DNA of 62,939 nucleotides, the filler included, from Neolecta irregularis DAH-3 (lineage: Eukaryota), in NCBI GenBank assembly GCA_001929475.1. It is 4 parts of 4 records of this genome, joined end to end, with 100 filler letters (N's around TTAATTAATTAA, not from the genome) between each part and the next. Parts side by side here need not be neighbours in the genome. Positions count along the whole stretch, not along the records: positions 24,660 to 54,776 come from LXFE01000678.1; 3 more parts are not named here. The stretch is one strand, 5' to 3'. Of this stretch, positions 1,844 to 49,504 are shown one piece after another. Under the pieces are notes generated by a model that was not told the origin of the DNA, did no database searches, and was given only the letters and a program-made list of their open reading frames with translations. The translations under genes and the position numbers were made by a program. Position 1 is the first letter of the stretch, and each line of letters opens with the position of its first letter.

Positions 1844-4800
1844 ATGTCTGCCGAAGAGAGACAGTCTGATGAATTCGATGTATCGACCGGAGATATCGGA
1901 AGCGCATTTTCGACTCCTGTGGAGAACCCTCAAGATCTGACTACTCACGATCAACCCAATTCCAATCGACCTCAAGCCAAGAGCGAAAAACCTTCACTGC
2001 CAACGCATACTGAACGTATAGCTATTAAAAGTAGCAGCGAGACATATACCGACGATCCAAATAGTGACAAACATACATCGAAAACTACTAAACTTCATGG
2101 TCTTATTTCGACAACAGCAGGCTCACATCCCTCAACAGAGCATTTATCGGGACCTAGGAGTGATACAGACTCTGCCATTGTTGAAGATTCAGAGACGCCT
2201 GCAGAAAGTATAACTGGTTCAAACCATTCAGTGCAGATTGATGAACACGTCCACGTGGACAGCCAAGCCCCGCATATCTCCAGGTCTGCTTCACCAGTCA
2301 CTCAAGTTTCTCCAAAATCAGAAGCTTCTACCAACTCTACCACTTTGCCGAATCCTACTGAGCATCACCGTCAAGGCTCTTCGGTTTTGACAACTTTATC
2401 TACTTCCATTACACTTGACAACTCTGGTGCTTTGAGTTCTATGGTATTTGTAGTTCAAGCTCTTGAGTGTATCGAAAAGAATAAAGACACGAGAAGACGG
2501 ACACAGTTATATGATGCCGTGAGAAAGGCATTGGGTAATTATAAGTGAGAAGTTTCAATTAATAGCTCCAGGTCTGATACGAAAACAAAGCCTGCGATCT
2601 CCTTCCGCAAACACCGTTTTTGAACCTCTTCGCTTGGCTTGCGAATCTAATCAATCCTCGTTAATGAAACCCGCTCTCGACTGTATCGCAAAACTTGCAT
2701 CCTATGATTTCTTCGTGGATCCGCCTCCTCCCCCTCCTGCACCTCTGTCAAGCATTGTCCCAGTACAAAGAGCCGATACACCCACAACACCCATTTTGGA
2801 GCGCGTGGTGGATACCGTATGTGCGTGCTTTCAAGGAGAAGTTACGGATGATGCCGTTCAAGTTCAGATCATAAAGGCGCTTCTTGCTATTGTTTTGGTT
2901 GATCGCAAAGGATCTGCGTTGCATCAAGGTTCTTTACTGAGAGCCGTACGACAGACCTACAATATTTTTCTTCTAAGTCGAAATGCTACCAATCAACATA
3001 TAGCACAAGGCGCACTTACTCAGATAATCGATACGGTATTTGGACGTGTCAGGATCCAGAAGGAAAAGCACGAGGATATTTCAAACGTGGATTTGGAGAT
3101 TCCAGTATCTGGAACTGAGGAGGATATTGCAGACGCTGGTGAGGAGAAAACTGTTGGTTCTGAATTACCAGAAGGCAAAGCCACTGGATCGCGTCAAAAT
3201 AGAATGACATTGCATGCATCATCTGCCTTTATTACTGATCAGTAGGAATTCTTTTGAAGGACGGAAATCTTTTGATGGGGTGTCTACTGCAAGATCAGCT
3301 TCAAGCGACGATGAACAAGATCTCGTTGTTAAAGACGCATTTCTTGTATTTCGCTCCATGTGCAAACTTTCTCTCCACTCACTAACACCGGAAAGGTATT
3401 CAATATTTTGTCTGTCTTTGCTGACAGCGTTAGTGCTGCCGATCCAAAGTCTCATGCAATGCGTTCAAAAATATTGTCTCTCTCAACGATCCACAGTATC
3501 CTCAGTTCTCATATCTCTATTTTTACCGACCCACGCGTGCTAATTCGGTCCTCATCAAGTCAAGAGAAGACAACATTTATGCAGGCTAGTAAACAATACA
3601 TATGTCTTAGCTTGTCTCGGAATTCTGTCAGCCATGTCCAACAGGTTTTTGAAATTAGTTGCAACATTTACACAATATTCGTCACTCGACTACGGAACGT
3701 CCTCAAGGTTCTTTTTAAAATTCGTTTATTTGCTGATTCCTTTTAGAAAGAAATCGAAGTGTTTACCCGTGAGATCTTTTTGCCAATCCTGGAAATGAGA
3801 ACTTCGTCATGGCAACAAAAACAATATCTTCTGAGCGTGTTTACAGACATTTGTAGAGATCCTCGCGCGTTGGTAGAAATATATTTAAACTACGATTGCG
3901 ACCGCTCAACTTTGGACAATGTTTATGAAAGGTAGAACTGATTGATGGCTGCTTGTACTAATTGCAGAATTATGAATGTGCTGTCAAAGATCTCTGCTAC
4001 AGTAGTAAACTCCCGATCACAGCAGCAGTCACAATCCGAGCAATACAAACATGCTGGCCAATCTGATTCACTACCCTCTAGTGTCGCTTTAGATACTAGT
4101 GGAGCTGTGCTACCAGTAGAATATCATCTTAGACGCCAGGCATTGGAATGTATAGTTGCAGTCCTTCGTTCGCTTGTTGAATGGTCTGAGACAGGAATGG
4201 CAGCCGCCATAGCGATCAATCTAGATGGAAGTGAAAGATTGAGTGGCGATACCCGATCCGAAGACTTGGAAGCACGTAGGAGTTCTGGAACGCAGTTGTC
4301 TACTGGTACGAGAACACCCAGTTCAACCTCTTTTTTTGCAACAAATTCTGCCAACGAATCCAAAAATGGCGTTCTTACGCTAGTGGACGATCCTACACAA
4401 TTTGAGACTCAGAAACATTTCAAGAACGCTCTTCTCGACGGTATACGATCATTCAACTACAAACCAAAGCGTGGCATTGCTTTACTCATTAAGCAAGGCT
4501 TTGTCAAATCCGATTCACCTAATGATATTGCACATTTTCTGCTCACAACCGAGGGTCTCAGTAAAGCAGTCATTGGAAATTATCTCGGTGAACCAGATCA
4601 AGCGAATATTGCCACAATGCATGCCTTTGTTGACCTGCAAGATTTTTCAAACCTGGATTTCGTGCCTGCACTGCGGAGATTTCTGCAAGCTTTTCGTTTA
4701 CCGGGAGAAGCCCAAAAGATTGATCGATTCCTGCTCAAGTTCGCAGGCAGATATGTTGAACAGAATCCAAAGGAATTTTCCAACGCAGACGCCGCTTACG

Positions 4801-7800
4801 TTTTGGCGTATTCTGTAACAATGTTAAACACGGATGCACATAATCCCCAAGTAAAAAAGCGCATGACGAAACCCGAATTTATCAAAAATAATCGCGGTAT
4901 AAATGATGGCGGGGATTTGCCACAGGAAATGCTCAGTGCTGTATACAATGACATTCAACAGAATGAGATTGTCATGCAAGAAGAACAAACTGCAGCTATA
5001 CTTGCTGGTGCAATGAATGTCACTCGGTCAGGAATTGCCGCAGGAATTGGTAATGCACTGGCATCTGTTGGTCGAGATATGCAACGGGAAGCATATGTCC
5101 TCGCTTCGGAAGAAATGGCGAACAAGACAGAGGTATAGCCATCACAGAATTTAGTGCTAACCATCAGGCCCTGTTCAGGAATATTATTAAAACACAACGC
5201 AAGTCTGGGCTCTCTGAATCAATCTTTTATAGCGCGACCCATTTTGAACACGCAGGTCCGATGTTTGAGGCAGCGTGGATGCCATTTCTTGCAGCGTTAT
5301 CAGGCACTGTTCAAGATTCCAATGATGTTGATAATATTAGAGCATGTATGGATGGCTTTCGACTCTCCATTCGAATCAGTAGCTTATTTGGGCTTGATCT
5401 TGCTCGTCGTGCATTTGTTGGTGCTTTGGCAAAGTTCACATTCTTGTCGAATTTGAGCGAGATGAAACTGAAGAACGTAGAAGCCATCAAGACTTTGCTG
5501 AGTGTTGGATTTTCCGAGGGAAACCGGCTGCGCGACTCATGGAAAGAAATTTTGACTTGTGTCAGTCGCCTGGAAAGACTGCAGTTAATCACGTCTGGGA
5601 TTGACGAAAATGCAGTGCCGGATTCTGCCTTGAGGCCTCAGATTATGTATGTTACTCGATCTGCACTGTTGACATTGAGTCGATCCTCATCCGAAACAAC
5701 GCGGTCATTCACTTCTCTTCATCTCAAGCCCAAGACTTTCACATCAGGACAATTTGCTAGAGAAGTCGCCGATCTGACTCAGTCGCGAGAGATCTTGCAC
5801 CTGACTGATAAAATATTCACAAAGAGTGCTGAGCTTTCAGGAGAAGCAATTGTCGACTTCGTTCGAGCCCTAAGCGAAGTGTCATGGGGAGAAATTCAAT
5901 CATCAGGTCTCGGCGAGCATCCTCGCATGTACAGCCTGCAGAAGGTTGTCGAAGTATCGTACTACAACATGGATCGAATCAGAATGGAGTGGTCCAACAT
6001 CTGGGTTATACTTGGAGAGCATTTCAACCGGGCAAAGCCTCTGTAGTCGATTTTACTGACATTCAGGTTGGTACTCATCCAAACACTGCAGTAGTCTATT
6101 TCGCCATGGACTCTCTTCGGCAGCTATCCATGCGGTTCCTGGAAATAGATGAATTGCCTTTTTTCAAATTCCAAAAGGATTTTTTAAAGCCTTTCGAATA
6201 TGTTATGTCTCATAACAGCGCAGTAACTGTCAAGGATATGGTATCTCGACGAGTTTTTACAGCCCTTTAATTGATATTCTAGATCCTGCGGTGTCTACAC
6301 CAAATGATTCAGACTCGAGGTCACCGGATCAAGTCTGGCTGGAGAACCATGTTTTGCGTCTTTGCTATTGCCTCTCGAGAGATTTATGGTTTATTCTCAG
6401 CCGGAAAACGTTAATTTTTAGAATCTGTCGTAAGCTTTGCTTTCGAAAATATCAAGACAATCAACAACGACTATTTTTTACAAATTTTCGCGCATGGTAG
6501 CTACCCAGATCTTGCCGTCTGCCTTACAGAACTTGCCAAGAATCAAAGGTTTCAGAAATTCAGCCTCCAAGCCCTTGAAATTTTGAAAGGGACTATACCA
6601 AACGTGCTTGCAAGATCCGAATGTCCTCTATACGAAAATTCTTCTCTCATAAAAAGCGATTCGGCAGATGCCGACCCGACTGTTCGATTTTGGTTTCCTG
6701 TTCTATTTGGATTTCATGATATTTTGATGACCGGTGATGATCTAGAAGTTCGCTCAAAGGCATTAACTTACTTGTTTGATACGATCACCAACTATGGAGA
6801 TGGCTTTTCCAACGATTTCTGGGACCTCGCTTGCCGACAATTACTTTTTCCTATTTTTAAGGTTCTCAAGTCACGATCAGAAGTGTCTCGATTTCACAAT
6901 GATGAGGATATGACCATTTGGCTTTCGACCACGATGATCCAGGCATTGCGAAATATGATTGCCCTTTTTACTCATTACTTTGCTCGTCTTCACCAACGGC
7001 TCGATGGATTTCTTGAACTGCTAGTTTCATGTATTTGTCAGGGTTTGCCACATGGTCATAAAGTTTCCATTGATATATAGAAAATGATACCTTAGCACGA
7101 ATAGGCAGTTCGTGCCTCCAGTCATTGATTTTAGAGAACGTGCATAAGCTTCAACCAGATCACTGGACTTTAATTACGAATGCATTTGTTAATCTTTTCG
7201 AAACAACAACTCCACGTGCATTATTTACCCAACAGAATGAGGTCGTTCAAACCCACTCTTCAGAGAATTCTCTGCGAATCAACGGTGCCGGTGTTGAACG
7301 AGAAGGAAACAACAACATTGATGACTCGAGACTCACTCAGCTCCAGTCACCTGCGGATTCTGATACTGTTTTTAGTAGAGAAGAGCCACATATTTCGCCA
7401 GCAAAACGAAAAGAATTTAAACAGACCATCGTGAAATGTGTTCTACAGCTTCTTATGATAGATACGCTATCGGAGTTGTTCTCAAGCCATGATGTTTATA
7501 ATTCTATTCCTTCTGCGCATATTCTCATTTTAATGGGAGAATTGAAGAAAAGTTATGAATTTGCGAAGACCTTCAACAATGACTTGGACCTGCGTAACCA
7601 CCTATTACGCATAGGTATTACTTTGTTTTTCTGTGTTGGCTTACTTCAAGGTTTCATGAAGCAATTGCCCAATCTCCTGCGTCAAGAGTCAAATAGCGCC
7701 GCCACTTATATCAACATTCTGATTAGAATGTACAACGATCCACAGGAAGACCGAATCGCGAGCAAGACTAGCGTTGAAGAAGCATTAATCCCGTATTAGA

Positions 7801-8139
7801 GCTGATTATTCCTTAACACTGACAAAAGTCTGTCTTTCGAAATCCTTCGAAATTTTAGCAAACTTAGTGCTGAATCACAGCAGCGGAATATCGCGGCCTG
7901 GGCTCCCGTTGTTGCTGAAATTCTTCAAGGAGTGGCCGAATTCTCAGAACAAGATGTATGTGCACCTGCGAATATCAAACATTAACTAAGTATAGTTTAA
8001 CAAGAGTTGCGATACATTCTATCCTCTGAGTACAGATTTAATCTTGATGGAGTTATCTTTACAAGTCCGGAGTTCATTACATGCTGTATTCAAGCGTATG
8101 GGATCTATGAGATTCAGCAATAAAAGTGCAATCAGTTGA
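1844..8139 (+). CDS. SEC7: Sec7/BIG family Arf guanine-nucleotide exchange factor; about 14 short introns
   Basis: DCB/HUS motifs (YLNYDCD), Sec7 domain FRLPGEAQKIDR...MLNTDAHNP, HDS motifs (YYNMDRIRMEWS, FKFQKDFLKPF). Spliced frame ends at TGA 8137-8139. Confidence 0.95.
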
Positions 8140-17731: not shown

Positions 17732-18559
17732 ATGACTCGCCGTTCTCCGTCTTTGAAGAAAAGTTTCCTTTATCTCGGCGTATTCCTTTCCATTTTAGCC
17801 TCTTTGTATCAAGCGTTTTTGATATTTCTTTTTGATTCAGTATAGATCAAGTCGCTATTCGCCCCGATTACAATCCGTCAAACTCCTCTTGTTGACAGCT
17901 CATCCTGATGATGAATCAATGTTTTTTGGACCAACGCTTTTAAATCTGCAACATACCCAAATATCGATATTGTGTTTGTCGAATGGAGATGACGGGGGCC
18001 TGGGCTCCATTCGCCAAGTCGAATTACGCGATGCCGCTGGCGTTTTGGGAATCAACAGTATTAAAGTAATCAATGATCAGTATTAGAGTATTCAATAACC
18101 AAATAACGGGATAGACGAATACCGGATGGAATGAACGTTACTTGGGATAAAACTATCATCCAAGAATACCTCGCTCAGTATCGACAATCATTCGATTTCG
18201 ATACGGTATATCCTTTTACAAATAAATCCAACTGGCAGATTCTCACTTTTGATCAAGAGGGCGTTTCGTCACATTTGAATCATATTTCGCTCTTCCAGGC
18301 CTCGCTTGATTTTTGCAAAATGTATGATTTGGGGTTATATACATTGCGCACTGTAGCAATTTATCAAAAGTACTTGGGCGCATTTGATATTTTGTTCTCG
18401 ACCATGTCTAGCGACTTGACGTTTGTTAATTCGCCGGTGAAATGGTACACGGGAGTTTGTGCTATGAGAAGACATAAATCGCAAATGGTTTGGTTTCGAT
18501 GGGGATGGGTTACTTTATCGAGATATATGTATGTCAATACAATCTCTAAAAGGTTGTGA
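17732..18559 (+). CDS. GPI12: N-acetylglucosaminyl-phosphatidylinositol de-N-acetylase (PIG-L)
   Basis: N-terminal TM anchor, AHPDDESMFFGPT, TFDQEGVSSHLNH, AMRRHKSQMVWFRW...SRYM. Confidence 0.92.
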
Positions 18560-18853
18560 ATTGGAGAAACTTTTAATTGAGAAACTATTAATTGTAAAGA
18601 GCTCCGTGGAGATTAGAGAAACTTCTAATTGCATTCGGACTTCTTCGTTTGTCTGACAAGCAAATCACTTGAACACGATTACACAGTTTGATTAGTGGTA
18701 CTACTCTAGGAGAGGTGTTCGTCATCAGGTGCCCTAGATAAATCTTCGCCAACTGCGAAAACCCAACCTCCACCTTTCTACCCCTTTTCTCATTTCAAAC
18801 CTCTTCCTTGTACCAGTCTCCCTCGCTCCTTACCCTCTTCTATCAAATAACAG

Positions 18854-20402
18854 ATGTCTGGTACGTCTCAATTGTGCTCGCGACACTATGTTCTAACGGA
18901 CATTTAGACGTCGATGAGCAAAGTATTGCCTCCGAGGCTCGTAGCAATCCGGATTTCGAGACTGAAACAGGCGACACGCAATCTTCTCCTGATCTCAAAG
19001 TATGCGAGTTATTGTAGATTTGGCTAATGCAAAGACTCCTGTGAACGAACTGCAGGACCTGTATCCATCCAAAGTTTCGAATATAGTCCGAAGGAAGCTT
19101 ACTGGATTCGTGGGCTTTGCCAATTTGCCTAATCAATGCCACCGAAGAAGTGTTCGCAAGGGGTTTAATTTTACGATGATGGTTGTTGGTAACGAGATTT
19201 GATCGAGGGTGGTGCTAATAAATAGGGGAATCCGGACTGGGCAAGACGACTTTGGTGAATACGTTGTTTAATTCTTCGTTGTATCCGCCGAAGCCGGTAG
19301 CCGGGCCGAGTTTGGAAGTGCCCAAGACTGTTGCGATTCAGAGCATATCTGCTGGTAGTGTTTTGCGCGAGTTTGCTGACGGACTAGATATTGAAGAGAA
19401 TGGGGTTCGATTGAGGTTGAATGTTGTAGACACCCCAGGGTTTGGGGACTTTATCGACAACGATGAGAGTTGGAAGCCCATCTTGGAGAATATTGAGGGG
19501 CGCTTTGACAGCTATTTGGAGGCGGAGAACCGAGTCAACCGGGCCAACATTATTGACAATCGGGTGCATGCATGTGTTTACTGTATCCAGCCTACTGGGC
19601 ATTCGCTCAAGGAGCTTGATATTGAGTTTATGAAGAGACTGCATACAAAAGTGAATCTTATTCCGGTCGTGGCCAAGGCGGATATGCTTACGGAGGAGGA
19701 GGTTGAGGCATTTAAGCGGCGGGCAAGGGGGCTTGTGGAGCGTGCTGACTGTAGATTCTTGCCGACATTGAGTATCACCAGATCAAGATCTTTGAGGCGC
19801 CGCGATACGAGCTGGACGACGAGGAGACGATCTGCGAGAACCGGGAGATTATGGCGAAGATTCCGTTTGCGGTGGTTGGCAGCACGAACGAGGTGATGAC
19901 GTCGAGCGGCAAGCTTGGGCGGGGGCGCAAGTATCCGTGGGGGGTTGTTGAGACGGACAACGAGGACCACTGCGACTTTGTGAAGCTGCGGCAGATGCTT
20001 ATCCGCACGCACATGGAGGAGCTCAAGGAGAACACGAACGACGTGTTGTACGAGAACTACCGCAGCGAGAAGCTGACTGCGATGGGAGTTGCGCAGGACC
20101 AGACGGTGTTCAAGGAGGTGAATCCTGCGGCGAAGCAGGAGGAGGAGCGGCAGCTGCACGAGGCGAAGCTGGCGAAGATGGAGGCGGAGATGAAGATGGT
20201 GTTTCAGCAAAAGGTGACGGAGAAGGAGTCGAAGCTGCAGCAGTCGCAGAAGGAGCTGTATCTGCGGCACACGGAGATGAAGGAGAATCTGGAGAAGCAG
20301 AAGGCGGAGCTGACGGACAAGCTGATGCGGATCCAGCAGCAGGGCAAGAATCTGGAGGAGAAGGGCAAGCGAAAGGGGTTTAGTCTGCGGGGGGCGAGTT
20401 AG
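18854..20402 (+). CDS. CDC3: Septin, Cdc3/AspB group; 5 introns including a 32-nt GC-AG intron (19723-19754)
   Basis: [12 protein letters not shown]-loop [28 protein letters not shown]-terminal coiled coil ending [10 protein letters not shown]. Confidence 0.9.
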
Positions 20403-20429
20403 CTATTGATAATTGAGTGCGTCTGATTA

Positions 20430-20547
20430 GTGCATTCTCTTTCTTTACTCCACTTTTCCACTCCACGTGCTCCATCCACTCTCCATCCACTCTTACCACT
20501 CACCCACCCACGTACTCCACCCACTCACCACTCACCACTCCTCTTCA
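20430..20547 (+). repeat. C/T-rich low-complexity (CCACT-like) intergenic tract
   Basis: Repeated ccact/ccacc units between CDC3 and POM33. Confidence 0.6.
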
Positions 20548-20559
20548 ATCTAACCAACG

Positions 20560-21469
20560 ATGACTGCCGCCCCCGCCGTGCTCCCGCTGCAGAAGCGGCT
20601 CGAGAATCTCGTCCAGCACACGCAGTTTGCGTGGTGGACCGGCCACCTGGTGCTGCTGCTTGCGGCCCTGCGCTACTCGGTCGCCGTGCTGCGCCTGGCC
20701 GCCGCGGCGCACGCCTGGGCGTACCGCACGGCCTTTCTGGCGGCGATCTTTGCGTACTCTGTGGTTATCTACAAGACGTATGCGCGGGCTGGCTTCCGCC
20801 TGGACTGGCCGGCGCTGACGCGCTTCTGGATGGACGAGAACGTCCAGTACCTGCTGCTGGCGCTTGTCTTCTTCCGCGCGGCGCCGATCTACCTGGCGCT
20901 GCTGCCGTACGCGGTGTTTTCCTTCTTCCACTTTGTGTCGTACCTGCGCGCCAACGTGCTGCCGGCGCTGGCCCCAGCCGCGCTGGCGACGCCGGCGTCG
21001 CCCGCGGCGCGCCTGGCCGCGCAGATCCAGTACTGGGTCAAGGCGACGTACGAGCCTGCGATGCGGCTTGTTGCGCAGATCGAGGTGGTTGCGCTGGGCG
21101 GGCGGATCCTGCTCGGGGTGCTGACGTACGCCCCGGCCTGCTACTTGCTTGCACAGCCGCTCACCGCCACAGGCTGCGCACGTCGTGGGGCGTGCTGCTC
21201 GTCTACCTGCACTTTCTGCGCTTCCGCTACTTTACGAGCGCATACACGCGGTACCGCCCCAGCCGCCGCCGCCGCCGCTGACGCACAGCCACACCTTTAC
21301 GCGCGTCGCGCTGCGCATCGACCATCTCGTTGCGGCGCACAACTGCCCGCCCGCGCTCGCCGCCGCCTGGCACGCCTTCAAGCGCGGCGTTGCGCAGTAC
21401 GCCACGACGCCGTTGATCAACACGCCCGCCGCCGCAAGCCCCGCCGGCGACAGCGACAAGGCCGAGTAG
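20560..21469 (+). CDS. POM33: Pom33/TMEM33 (UPF0121) ER/nuclear-pore membrane protein; 2 introns
   Basis: QFAWWTGH, AYSVVIYKT, DENVQYLLLAL, LLPYAVFSFFH..SY.R, FLRFRY.TSAYTR. Confidence 0.85.
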
Positions 21470-21566
21470 CAACGTCTTTGTATCGTATCTGATCTGTCTG
21501 CATCTGTCTTTTCTCTCTCTTCCTCTTCTCTCTTCTCCCTCCCTCCTCTGTCTTCCCTCCCTCCCC

Positions 21567-24326
21567 TCACTTCCTCCGGCGCCCCTTCTTCTCTACAATC
21601 TTAAACTGCCCGTTCCACTCTGCTTCCGCCCGCCTCCCCGGCGTCCGCGCAACCTCGCTCCACGCCCCCTTGCGCCGCGCTACAAACTCCTGCGCAAACC
21701 GCCGCCCGTCCATCGTCGTCGAGTTGGCGTAGATCGTCTCGGCGATGATCTCCTGCGAGTCCCGCGTCAGAGGGAACGAAAGAAGCAGCTGCAGCGTCTG
21801 CTCAGCTGTATACCGTTACCTTGTTCACAGACCGGGTGGTGCTACCATTGACATTCGCATTCAACCCTCTCATCGAGTCCCGCGCCCACTGCGTAAACTC
21901 CTCGCTCGCGAGCAAAGAGTTCCACACCACCACGGGCCCGGCGGCTTTCGCGGCCGGCTTGCCCGCGACAATATTCTTGCTGGCGGGCGGGCCCTTGGGC
22001 TTCCCGACCACCGTCCACGCGCCCCCGCCCGCGGTCCCGCTCTTTGCGGCCCCGCTCGGCGACGCGGCGGTGTCGGCGTACCGCTTCGCGCTCTCCCTGC
22101 AAACATCGCTCTTCCTCGCTTCCTCCTCCTCTTGAATCTGCTGCAGCGTCTTCTTGTTCCCTGCGGCGCCCTTCCATCCGCTGCCCTTGGACGCCCATCC
22201 AGCTCCAACAGGCAGCCCCTCATAGCCTTCGCCGGTCTCTTTTCCTTCTTGACCCTTTCGACTCTCTTTTCCTTCTTGACCCTTTCGACTCTCTTTTCCA
22301 GTCTCCTTCATATTTCCAGTCTCTTTCATATTTCCAGTCTCTTTTTGACTCTCTTTTTGACTATCTTTCCTATCTCTTCGACTCTCTTTTCGAGCTTCAA
22401 GCATCTGTATCTCGGAAAACGAAGGCGTCGAAATATTGCCCTTTGGGGATGCCCATTTATTCTTCGGCGTCGGTATCTGCTCCACAACTGGACTCGTACT
22501 AGATTTCTCTTCAGACGGTGTAGTCGTCGTAAGCGCTTTTTCTTCAGGTTGATCTATCTCGACTTCCTTTTCAGCCTCGACTACCTCCAATGGACCGTCT
22601 ACTGTAGAATTGTTCCATGGACTAAACCCAATCGATGTCCCTACAACTGGAGAAAACGGAGGTCGATGATTATCATACGGAGAATACTGCCTTAATTGCT
22701 GCTGATGAAACAGCTCCTTTTGCCGAGCTGCAAGAATCGCTTCCTCTTGCTTTCTTCTTTCCAACGCATTCTGCTGCTCAGCAGTCAGCGTCGTCCCGAA
22801 ACTAGGAAATTGGCCCGGAAACGGAGGCTGCAATCGCCCTGGCTCCCATGCACTCGGCCCTTTACATCCAATCGGAAGCGTTTCCGTCCTCGACGGCAAC
22901 GGTATCAAGAAGGGCTCTTTTTTATTGCCAATGCGAGATATAAACGATCCCAGCAGCTCGAAATTCACATCCTCCTCCATTTTCACTTGTAGGTCGAATT
23001 TGAAAAAGCCAGCAGTATACCACTCGTGCATTTGCAACCCCGTAAACGGGCCTTGAATCGACCCTGACGGGTCCCGATAATGCCAGGATACGGAATCAGG
23101 CATTCTCATTACGCGAGTGGTGTTTGGCGGAGCAGCGGGCAAAGATGGTGTGTTTGGAGCTACCGGGTGCTCAAAAAGCGCTGGATTCGCGGATTGCGTG
23201 TCGTAAAAGGGCTGCATTGGCGCGGACTGCCGCACCGGTTGGCTGGGAAACCGGTCTGCTTCGCTAATAGGATCTTCATTAAAAGTCGACTGCTTGACCG
23301 TCTCGGGAATCGCAGCAGCATGTTCGAGTTCTTCTGGTTGAATACCAAGGCTTGCTAGGCGAGACACTTGACGACCTCCAGCAAGTCCGGGGCGAGGAAA
23401 GGTATTCTCCATCGCCGAGTCGACTGATCGTCGAGGCCGGGCAACAAAGACTTCACCAATCTACGAATGAGCTCATGTAGACGGAAAACGCTCACTTGAT
23501 GGGTTTTCGAAATGTCGGCGCTATATTCGCCGGGACTGTCTCTTGTAAAATATCCATCTTGATTAAATGCTCCCACTGTCTCTGCACTAGAGGTCTGCCA
23601 TACTTCGGCAAACGGCCCTTCCCGGCTACGTGAGCTTCGAGTGGAAACATCAGAGCCTTTCCCGATCATGTCCTTTCGCGCTGGGATAAGCAGAGGATAG
23701 ATCGAGAGCATACATCTTTGGTAACCTGCACTGCGCGGGGTATTCACTCGCTGTGGATACAGCCGTCCTGACCCGCCGAGCTCAAAGGCATGGGTGCTGA
23801 TTGCGTCCGGTCGGCGTTTGCGGTCGCAGTTGACTTTGCCAGAAAAAAGCTGCACACTCAATCACTCCTCGCCAAGTATAATACCCTTGAATCATCCTCA
23901 GTCATGGACGACAGTGATAGAGGTTCTTGCGGCGAAGCACGGACGAGATAGCTGTCGACGTCCAGGCAGAGAGGAATGCCGGCATTGAGATACCTGCCTG
24001 GATTGGCCTTGAAGACGTCGAGAATGTTGTCTCGCGAGAACTTGGGGTTGTCTCGCGAGAGCTTGAGAGTGTCAAGGTTGTCTCGCGACAACTTGGGAGT
24101 CTGAAGGCTGTCTACTGGCGGGTGATGTCCATTTAAAAGTGTGTTGTATGCAAGAGCAGCGCTGTACGAGAACGAGGGTTGGCTATGGATGTCGGGCGGT
24201 GGAGCGATGGACGAGGGAGGGAGCGAAGCGGGCTTTGAGGATGACTGGAGCCTGGACGGATTGAGCGGCGGGGGTGAGCAAAGACGCATACCATTCCGGA
24301 GCCAGGGTTTGCAGTGTCGGGGCCAT
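21567..24326 (-). CDS. GYF-domain protein (Smy2/Syh1/Mpd2, GIGYF-like); 4 introns
   Basis: GYF domain WHYRDPSGSIQGPFTGLQMHEWYTAGFF, LTAEQQNALERRKQEE, C-terminal IIAETIYANSTTMDGRRFAQEF. N-terminal LAPEWL is split by an intron. Confidence 0.85.
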
Positions 24327-24559: not shown

Positions 24560-24659
24560 NNNNNNNNNNNNNNNNNNNNNNNNNNNNNNNNNNNNNNNNN
24601 NNNTTAATTAATTAANNNNNNNNNNNNNNNNNNNNNNNNNNNNNNNNNNNNNNNNNNNN
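24560..24659. other. Artificial scaffold spacer: N-run with TTAATTAATTAA linker
   Basis: The linker gives stops in all six frames. The same structure occurs at 54777-54876 and 61080-61179. Confidence 0.95.
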
Positions 24660-46587: not shown

Positions 46588-47680
46588 ATGCCTCCGATAA
46601 AATATCCCAGACCGACAGGCCACAACCTACTGCCGCCCCAGGTTTTAAGGCCAAAATCCCACGAGTATGTTCGTATTGTAGATGTGAGTGTGAGAGACGG
46701 CCTTCAGAATGAACGCGGATTTGTACCTACAGAAATTAAGTGTGAATTGCTTGATCGTCTGACCCGGACGGGATTGGAAGCTATCGAGGCTACAAGCTTT
46801 GTATCTCCGAAGTGGGTCCCCCAGGTATTCAACTGTGGAGACTTCATGTGCTCACTGTTCAGCTTGCTGATGCTCGAAAAGTCATGGGGCATATTAAACG
46901 AGCCCATTCCGCTTCGAAAATCCGATTTCCTGTCCTTGTCCCTAATAAAGGAGGGTTGGAATCTGCCCGTGCTGCTGGGGCCACGGAGATTGCAGTATTT
47001 GCTTCCGCAAGCGAAGGGTTTAGTCGAAAAAACATCAATTGTTCGATCGAAGAAAGTTTGAGAAGATATAAAGAAGTGTGTCTGTTGGCGTTACAATATG
47101 GAATGAAAGTGAGAGGTACTACTGGATGCTGTTCAAGGTAATTTATCAGGGTACGTAAGCTGCGTTATTGCTTGCCCGTACGATGGTCATACACCTCCGG
47201 AAAACGTACTACGAGTATCACAATCCCTTCTAGACATGGGCTGCTTCGAAATATCTTTAGGAGACACAATTGGTGTCGGAACACCAGGTATCTGGCTTAT
47301 CTCTATTGGCTTAACGATAAGCAACGATTGGAATTCTGTTGAATTATCTCCTCAAAACAATTCCGTCACATAGCCTAGCAGGCCATTTTCATGATACATA
47401 TGGGCAGGGTGTTGCTAATGTCGTCAAAGCTCTTGAAATGGGAATTCGAACGTTTGATGCAAGTGTGGGTGGGCTAGGTGGGTGCCCCTTCGCAAAAGGG
47501 GCAACGGGCAACGTTGCTATGGAAGATGTTCTCTATTGTTTGCATAGTATGGGCTTTAAAACCGGTGTGAATTTGGAAATGGTTGCGGATATTGGAGACT
47601 GGATTTCGAAAACCTTGGCCAGGAACAATTCCTCGAGGTGTGGGACTGCTTTGGTAAACAGGCGGAGGGCGAAATTATAA
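46588..47680 (+). CDS. Hydroxymethylglutaryl-CoA lyase
   Basis: [61 protein letters not shown]. Confidence 0.93.
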
Positions 47681-47764
47681 CATCGAAGTCTAGACGCTAG
47701 TTATTATGTAACTGACTATGTTGGAGGTCAGGAGACGTTAAATGTGATTATGCGATTGCCAAGA

Positions 47765-49228
47765 CTACATGACTGAGAATGCCTCTTCTATAATATCTAG
47801 CCCATTCCGCAAAGGTTCTGGTTCAATATTCAGGGGAGGAATGATCCGTAGTGTATTGTTGCCGGCAGATATGATCAAAAGACCGCGTTCCCGACACAGG
47901 TCAATGAAATGCGTTGGGTCAACAGATAACTGCACGCCAAGCAAAAGACCTCTTCCCCGAATCTCGGTTATCAGCGAGGGAAATCGATATTGTAGACGTC
48001 GTAATCGAGAAGTAATAACATCACTTGATTGTTGAACTGACTGTAAGAGTTCGGTTGAAGATAGACGCGAGAATGTATGATGAGCAACTCGACAGGCGAG
48101 TGGGTTCCCTCCAAACGTGGTGCCTTGACGTCAATGGATATGTTTCAGTCATTGTCACCATGATCTCCAATCTTGATAGCCTCTGCTACATCTTCACCTA
48201 CGAGAATAGCGCCGATTGGGAATCCATTTGCAAGTGATTTGGCCATCGTTAAAACATCTGGCTGGATATATTTCGGTAAGTATTGGTGAGCCCATAACTT
48301 TCCTGTTCGCCCGAGACCACACTGAAGAATCAGTGGTGAATTATCAGGCCTTACCTGAATCTCATCAAAAACAAGTACTGCGCTCACCTGAGTACATCTT
48401 TCCCGCAAGGCCCCCAAAAACTCAGCCGATCCTTGATATACTCCACCTTCGCCCTGAATAGGTTCAACTATGACACCACATGTTTCTTCCGTGACAAGCT
48501 CAGCAATGCCTTCAGCTTTATTATATTCTCCGACCACGAAACCAGGAACCATTGGAGCAAAAGGTGCTTGATATTTTGGATTTGGGGTTGCACTTAGGGA
48601 ACCCATCGTTCTACCATGAAATGAATTCGTGAAGGATACGATCTTATGTTTTTTCACATCGCCGATTAATTTTCCCACTTTCCTACAAAATTTGATTGCC
48701 CCTTCGTTTGCCTCTGTTCCGCTGTTGGCGAAGAAGACTTTGGAAGCCTTCTGCATTCCACCTGATAGTCTGGTTGTCTCAACAATAAGCCTTGCAAGCT
48801 CTCCAGCCTGGGACGCATGATATAAATTGCTGACGTGAATTAACTTGAGAGCTTGATCGTGAATGATGGCGGCGATCGTTGGATCAGCATGTCCAAGAGC
48901 ATTTACAGCAATTCCGGCAGTGAAGTCAATATAGCGCCTTTGGTTCTAATTAGCTCGTGCGGCCAAGAGATGGAAGATTCCTGTTTTCCAAGTCCCATAA
49001 ATATGCACCTTTACCCCGCGTGAATACAACATTTGGACGAGTATATGTGGTCAACACGAATTCAGAATTATCCTTGATCAATTTTGCAGATGGCGAATTA
49101 TCAGACGGATCTGGATGCGAGACTTTTCTAATCAACTACGAACAATGAGAAAACAGCCTTCTTCATGAGAACCAAACTATCGACCTTTGAAGTATTTTGG
49201 CTAGATGAGTAAAGTGCTGATTGAGCAT
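47765..49228 (-). CDS. ARG8: Acetylornithine aminotransferase, mitochondrial
   Basis: YIDFTAGIAVNALGH, NSGTEANE, SFHGRTMG, VEPIQGEGG, DEIQCGLGRTG, MAKSLANGFPIG, HGTTFGGNP. Confidence 0.93.
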
Positions 49229-49504
49229 GACTCAGCCTTATCTGCGACCTTAAATTTAATTCACCAAGATCTTGGAGGCAGAATCTTCGAAATGAATGGA
49301 TCATTATTTCAAGGATAGAAAGTAGTGGTAGTGCTCAGTGAAGTACAAGTTCCAGGCTAAGAGTGCGTTCGCCAGTCACTATTTTGACCCAAATATGACG
49401 TTTTGACGTAGTATTCCATATTCCATAATAACGTTGCGTTCGGCGCCACAACTATTCCAACTTCATTTTCTCATATGCGGCTTAGAAACCCGAGAAAAAA
49501 ATCC

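Follow-up and report, generated by a model that had tools for sequence, protein, structure and literature searches.

A probable GA-AG intron in the ARG8 gene of Neolecta irregularis, an early-diverging ascomycete

Introduction

Introns start with GT almost universally. C at the second intron position (+2) is the common exception, at about 1-2%, and A at this position is far rarer. In DNA of Neolecta irregularis DAH-3, an early-diverging ascomycete of the Taphrinomycotina, the two parts of a conserved segment of the ARG8 gene are separated by 43 nt on the minus strand that can be read as an intron beginning with GA and ending with AG. A preliminary description of this DNA, made from the sequence, had proposed exactly such an intron. 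Here we ask whether the 43 nt are removed from the transcript, whether the odd base is really there, and whether the spliceosome is the likely agent of removal. The analysis covered a stretch of 62,939 nt (the window), to which all positions refer. Among the entries listed by a literature search, no title or abstract concerned Neolecta splice sites, and the words intron, splice, RNA-seq, transcriptome and canonical have no mention in the main text of the Neolecta genome paper (PMC5309816).

The ARG8 gene and its public model

ARG8 (ArgD) encodes acetylornithine aminotransferase and lies on the minus strand, running from approximately 49304 to a stop codon at 47765-47767 (Table 1). Its two large open reading frames match the Pfam profile of class-III aminotransferases, PF00202, with E values of 5e-71 and 5e-26, and a 263-residue query is 61-69% identical to named fungal acetylornithine aminotransferases. 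Taken with the gap-free junction described below, the profile match and the identity to orthologues are what a full-length member of the family would be expected to show. The top database match of the query is a protein of the same species (P0001, 365 aa), titled 'Acetylornithine aminotransferase, mitochondrial, partial [Neolecta irregularis DAH-3]', with 96% identity over 98% of the query; the mismatch between the two is due to an 11-codon in-frame intron that was left in the query. Another gene in the window encodes a protein with 100% identity to sec72 of N. irregularis (P0121). As both genes match proteins of this species, the window is Neolecta DNA.

P0001, which corresponds to the window from 48930 onward, begins with the residues IDFTAG, just 3′ of the 43 nt, and at least 52 conserved upstream residues are missing from it together with the presequence. 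Truncation at this point is as expected if a gene finder limited to GT and GC donors had failed at the donor.

The base composition of the window is uneven: positions 18001-24000, which hold septin, TMEM33/Pom33 and GYF-domain genes, have a G+C content of 0.51-0.57, compared with about 0.44 elsewhere, and are followed by a run of N at 24560-24659.

Table 1 Features of ARG8 in the window, from 5′ to 3′ on the gene strand, with the basis of each assignment; slashes mark splice junctions
Feature	Position	Strand	Basis
Predicted 5′ part of ARG8, likely ATG at 49304-49302	49136..49304	-	inference only
Upstream coding exon (LIRKVSHPDPSD...AYLWDLEN and two bases of a split Arg codon)	48981..49135	-	open reading frame; aligned to 12 homologues
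Putative 5′ splice site CAG/GAATCT; exon side CAG equals the consensus	48975..48983	-	sequence
Probable 43-nt intron, GA..AG	48938..48980	-	sequence; skipped in X2 record 9; frame and homology
Likely branch site CTAAT with its A at 48950, 12 nt from the end of the intron	48949..48953	-	motif; use inferred
Putative 3′ splice site AG	48938..48939	-	sequence and X2 joint
Downstream coding exon (completes the split Arg codon with its third base and continues RYIDFTAGIAV...FDEIQ)	48355..48937	-	PF00202, E 5e-71; P0001 begins here
Canonical GT-AG intron, 33 nt, GTAAGG...CTGAT...CAG, in frame, stop-free	48322..48354	-	skipped in X2 record 9; absent from P0001
Canonical GT-AG intron, 35 nt, GTGACA...TTGAC...AAG	48124..48158	-	skipped in X2 record 9; Pfam coordinates contiguous across it
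Last coding exon, stop codon 47765-47767	47765..48123	-	open reading frame, homology, PF00202

Reading frame and homology at the junction

Around the 43-nt piece (48980-48938) the minus strand reads ...TTGGAAAACAG/GAATCTTCC...GCTAATTAGAACCAAAG/GCGCTATATT. Left unspliced, the frame passes from ...GKGAYLWDLEN into ...RNLPSLGRTS and reaches a stop codon inside the piece itself (...AYLWDLENRNLPSLGRTS, then stop); that the unspliced frame meets a stop had been stated in the preliminary description. The conserved continuation RYIDFTAGIAVNALGH resumes in a different frame at 48936, and removal of the 43 nt joins both parts. We enumerated all in-frame, stop-free GT-AG, GC-AG, GA-AG and AT-AC introns of 20-300 nt in this region. 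This gave 61 solutions, and only one of them, GA-AG at 48980-48938, yields ...LWDLEN/RRYIDF.... No GT-AG or GC-AG solution among the 61 keeps both YLWD and YIDF, in agreement with the earlier claim that no GT or GC donor in the right phase would preserve the YLWD motif. The nearest canonical alternatives, a GC-AG intron at 49006-48946 and GT-AG introns at 49027/49030-48946, were rejected, as each removes conserved residues.

Against each of 12 fungal homologues the spliced protein shows no gap at the junction, and several of the homologues have ENRRYIDF or ENRRYLDF at exactly this point. Frame and alignment thus agree with the preliminary description that the 43 nt must go to join WDLENR to what follows.

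Five other fungal metagenome loci (L001-L004 and L006, of 80 kept) are contiguous at the ARG8 site and have no intron there. They therefore offer no support from conservation and show merely that those fungi lack the intron, which, judged from these sequences, may be lineage-specific. None of the 80 loci kept, all at 60% identity or less, is a second Neolecta sequence. Within the window the intron has no other copies, just chance matches of up to 14 nt, and hence there is no sign of an introner-like family.

Evidence from sequencing-run contigs

Two public runs from one study, X1 and X2, were used, both as assembled contigs. Record 1 of X1 is a DNA contig of 5487 nt that equals the window over 47600-49406 at every position except 47762, and it includes the 43 nt. 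Record 9 of X2 (4119 nt, depth 72.5) has no other letters relative to the window and skips five stretches. One of its joints, from 48936 to 48980, skips exactly 43 nt, with a 3-nt ambiguity at the ends; this is the same piece whose removal had been predicted from protein homology alone. The contig also skips both canonical ARG8 introns, 48354-48322 (33 nt) and 48158-48124 (35 nt). X2 carries the label 'DNA?', which is a guess, and contigs give neither strand, abundance nor single-molecule proof. Because exactly the introns are absent and every exon base matches, we infer that record 9 is derived from cDNA. The 43 nt are present in DNA and absent from this transcript-like contig, and frame and homology demand their removal. 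If X2 is indeed of RNA origin, they behave as an intron should, being kept in X1 and skipped in X2. No X2 contig retaining any of the five skipped pieces was seen; contigs drop rare forms, so that this result is silent on intron retention.

Record 9 is a composite path, and its joints are not automatically coding splices. The 43-nt joint might have been produced during reverse transcription or assembly, by template switching or by a graph shortcut across a repeat, with the genomic gene being broken or read in some other way. The trinucleotide AGG is directly repeated at both ends of the piece, which is the kind of place where template switching arises, two further non-canonical joints occur in the same contig, and PMC7072748 mentions that GA-AG calls may stem from template switching. 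Set against this, three nucleotides make a short repeat for template switching, the remainder of the gene is undamaged and its canonical introns are clean, and an artefact would have had to coincide by chance with the sole deletion that restores the frame and the ENR/RYIDF alignment. That this deletion was predicted beforehand from the protein also sets the joint apart from the other odd joints of the contig. We therefore regard an artefactual joint as very unlikely.

Splice signals in the window

We compared the proposed GA-AG intron with 24 introns of the window. Exact mapping of the public sec72 protein to the window supplied 13, all GT-AG; a further 10 GT-AG introns were fixed through contiguous Pfam profile coordinates or the X2 contig, and one intron was GC-AG. 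This set was built by requiring GT or GC donors and so says nothing about how frequent GA donors are. The sec72 model spans 1844-8136 on the plus strand, with introns of 33-62 nt. The GC-AG intron, 32 nt long, lies in the septin gene at 19723-19754 on the plus strand (GCAAGG...CTGAC...TGTAG) and was placed by overlapping Pfam profile coordinates. Two more introns from pairs of open reading frames stand outside the set, both of them GT-AG (E2, 413-446; VID27, 41752-41718). Ab initio intron finding by the joining of open frames had yielded 4568 and then 1288 candidates in 389 groups; it was too noisy, and was replaced by Pfam-anchored pairs of open reading frames and the sec72 model.

The 24 comparison introns are 32-62 nt long, with a median of 37 nt. 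G is found at -1 in 17 of the 24 and A at +3 in 19, and positions +4 to +6 are nearly random, with G at +5 in just eight. Four of the 13 sec72 donors begin with GTT, not GTA or GTG, which indicates that the donor consensus is weak. Matches to the 9-mer CAG/GTAAGT number 4-8 (median 5) across the 24 introns; the GA donor reaches six of nine, and 17 of the 24 score lower. A YTRAY-type motif is present in 20 of the 24, with a distance to the 3′ end of 6-10 nt for 18 of them and of 17-18 nt for two, and was not found in four. The proposed intron, 43 nt long and carrying CTAAT at 12 nt, has both the branch motif and the size of a Neolecta intron. An earlier TAG at 48946-48948 is skipped over as acceptor.

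The donor reads G at +1, A at +2 (the odd base, 48979), A at +3, T at +4, C at +5 and T at +6. The ATCT at +3 to +6 is identical to that of a GTATCT donor at 6241, and this donor belongs to a 42-nt GT-AG intron of the public sec72 model (6241-6282). The single-base difference between GAATCT and GTATCT to which the preliminary description had pointed is thus a difference from a real donor. Position +2 aside, these signals suggest that the GA-AG intron is above average for Neolecta. The preliminary description had also called it, if real, the extreme case of relaxed donor recognition. Relaxed recognition is in line with the near-random +4 to +6 positions of the 24 introns; 'extreme case' goes too far, as GA-AG introns are recorded at low frequency for other fungi (PMC3577648, PMC11590231).

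Placement of the cut and the agent of removal

The AGG repeat at both ends of the intron, which is the usual protosplice context, allows four equivalent cut placements with the same product. On the gene strand these are AG..AA, GG..AA, GA..AG and AA..GG, and the corresponding ends on the opposite strand are TT..CT, TT..CC, CT..TC and CC..TT. Canonical ends are absent from all four placements on either strand, and none starts with GT or GC. G at +1 together with a terminal AG is present in one of the four, GA..AG.

The 43 nt could in principle be removed other than by a GA-AG spliceosomal reaction, that is, at another placement, by an IRE1/tRNA-ligase type of mechanism or by a U12-type spliceosome, since the product does not reveal the cut site. 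AG..AA, GG..AA and AA..GG are without both conserved ends, whereas GA..AG keeps G at +1 and the terminal AG and has the branch motif at the usual distance. IRE1/HAC1-type introns are marked by two stem-loops with 7-nt loops that carry the cleavage sites. The two stem-loops were not found here. A 103-nt segment had a minimum free energy of -16.6 kcal/mol (z = +1.6), and 196 of 200 shuffles folded at least as well, so that the fold is weaker than that of the shuffles and no stable structure is indicated; we also take it that neither end of the ARG8 intron fully fits the IRE1 loop rule. U12-type introns have the donor (A/G)TATCCTT and the branch box TCCTTAAC, and within 48938-48980 there is neither a U12 donor nor this box. 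Ascomycota are not known to have a minor spliceosome. Removal by any of these other routes thus has only a slight probability, and a cut at GA/.../AG by the spliceosome, with CTAAT as the branch site, would best account for the ends of the piece.

The base at position +2

X1 differs from the window and from X2 at 47762, just 3′ of the ARG8 stop codon, where X1 has T and the other two have A; this is the sole difference in 1.8 kb. X1 is therefore not a plain copy of the window, and the samples are slightly different genetically. At 48979, record 1 of X1, a contig with a word depth of 474, carries A, with no other letter recorded. The preliminary description had asked for this base to be checked, and its presence in an independent deep assembly means that it is not an assembly slip.

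The donor could still be GT in those individuals or nuclei in which the gene is expressed, with the A at 48979 reflecting a polymorphism or an error in the DNA data. The samples are genetically non-identical, as 47762 shows, and contigs mask minor variants. Against a concealed GT, A stands at 48979 both in the window, whose base at 47762 is that of X2, and in X1, whose base there is different, and the depth of X1 came with no second letter. We consider a hidden GT donor highly improbable.

Other joints and the 5′ end of ARG8

Record 9 of X2 skips two further pieces in and near the coding region. The first, 36 nt at 48012-48047, lies in frame inside the coding region, and its loss would remove 12 conserved residues, LQSVQQSSDVIT, a segment that is gap-free in all 12 homologues and present in P0001. 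On the gene strand the piece has the ends CT..AC; the plus strand reads GTAATA...CTGAC...TGTAAG, a perfect intron of the Neolecta type. The skip is likely to reflect splicing of an antisense RNA, perhaps read-through from the HMG-CoA lyase gene, which is convergent with ARG8 and has its end near 47680. Splicing of antisense RNA is also how PMC7072748 accounts for CT-AC 'introns' annotated in fungi. The second piece, 37 nt at 49192-49228, can be read on the gene strand as AT..AC or CA..TA; its plus-strand ends are GT..AT, the donor being GTATTT and a CTGAT motif standing 8 nt before the end. After this skip the ARG8 frame keeps two stop codons, TGA at 49165-49163 and TAG at 49138-49136. Neither joint is compatible with ordinary sense-strand splicing to a functional ARG8 mRNA.

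If the 37 nt are kept, a canonical 49-nt intron at 49184-49136 (GTCGAT...TCTCAT...CGTAG) would leave the N-terminus open, starting with the ATG at 49304; alternatively, a 42-nt intron at 49177-49136 following the 37-nt skip would do the same. The X2 contig removes neither of these candidates.

Upstream of ARG8, at about 49328-49500, the intergenic DNA shows a roughly sevenfold rise in summed contig depth in both runs (3328 compared with 474 in X1), accompanied by numerous diverged contigs and by loose ends. This stretch probably represents a multi-copy element; a second copy was not found within the window.

That the locus is a decaying pseudogene, in which a frame-restoring joint would be irrelevant, is barely plausible: the two in-frame stops kept in the 5′ part of the X2 contig would be cleared by the canonical 49-nt or 42-nt intron, the 36-nt joint that deletes conserved residues concerns a piece that is a perfect intron solely on the opposite strand, an open frame of 419 codons extends from 49135 to the stop once the 43-, 33- and 35-nt introns are removed, and the identity to fungal orthologues given above holds over the 263-residue query.

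Discussion

Together, these data make it probable that the 43 nt are a genuine spliceosomal intron of Neolecta ARG8, of the rare GA-AG kind and U2-type. We envisage an ordinary U2-dependent intron with A in place of T at +2, CAG/GAATCT ... CTAAT ... AAAG/G, whose precise removal would bring back the reading frame together with ...LWDLENRRYIDFTAGIAV..., a conserved segment of acetylornithine aminotransferase. The tiny introns of Neolecta are probably recognised more by their short length and a YTRAY branch site than by a strong donor, and the other features of this intron (the CAG exon end, G at +1, A at +3 and ATCT at +3 to +6) appear to equal or beat the local norm. Most likely, then, it is the major spliceosome, with a low dependence on donor sequence, that lets the A at +2 pass. 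In preparation for the second step of splicing, U at +2 contributes to docking of the 3′ splice site. A cost in efficiency is to be expected from its replacement, for which strong pairing on the exon side may compensate. The most economical history would have T replaced by A in a donor of the GTATCT type, a change tolerated by the local splicing machinery.

When a GA donor is permitted, at least 52 conserved residues are gained upstream of the start of P0001 (51 codons and the split Arg codon), and other Neolecta genes may likewise have been cut short by gene finders limited to GT/GC-AG introns. A transcript-supported donor with A at +2, among very short introns with a very weak donor consensus, also bears on the minimal information that the spliceosome needs at a 5′ splice site. 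One could go further and suppose that Neolecta generally splices by a rule of length plus branch site, and that GA and GC donors, perhaps with non-AG acceptors, are far commoner in it than in other fungi. Within one 1.9-kb stretch, a single transcript-like contig has the GA-AG joint and the 37-nt joint (GT-AT or AT-AC, depending on the strand), and the window also contains the GC-AG intron of the septin gene. We think such a general rule unlikely. Were it true genome-wide, Neolecta would parallel Oikopleura among the fungi and would offer a natural setting in which to study the role of the +2 base.

GA-AG introns are already documented in fungi, and Neolecta ARG8 is a further single case with no new mechanism. 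For Fusarium graminearum, PMC3577648 places GA-AG among the 0.31% of 'other' splice sites and reports seven genes with non-canonical sites that were confirmed by Sanger sequencing. For Ganoderma lingzhi, Table 1 of PMC11590231 gives 35 GA-AG introns among approximately 92,000 (0.038%). As in these fungi, the ARG8 intron appears to be a U2-type GA..AG intron in a protein-coding gene for which a GT/GC-only gene model is wrong. Unlike them, Neolecta belongs to the Taphrinomycotina and has much shorter introns, and the support here is one contig and homology, compared with Sanger-verified cDNA.

Among animals, PMC7072748 describes Oikopleura dioica and Eurytemora affinis as having more GA-AG than GC-AG introns genome-wide, mentions a proposed variant U1 snRNA for these GA-AG-rich animals, and finds a conserved AG before the GA and an A after it in their supported GA-AG introns. 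ARG8 has the same dinucleotides and the same flanks, AG/GAA. In contrast to these animals, Neolecta presents one known case, set beside about 26 introns of one window that were collected by a method biased to GT and GC; Rfam matches in the whole window numbered zero. Human FGFR genes are cited in PMC7072748 as holding an efficiently spliced GA-AG intron in an otherwise normal gene, with a different dependence: ARG8, by contrast, has no GT in the 11 nt upstream of its donor (TTGGAAAACAG).

With U12-type AT-AC and GT-AG introns the ARG8 intron shares the possibility of termini other than GT-AG; it differs from them in having no ATATCC or GTATCC donor, no TCCTTAAC box and a length of just 43 nt. 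GC-AG introns, of which the septin gene provides one in the window, are alike in that a change at +2 is tolerated there too, with good neighbouring positions compensating for it.
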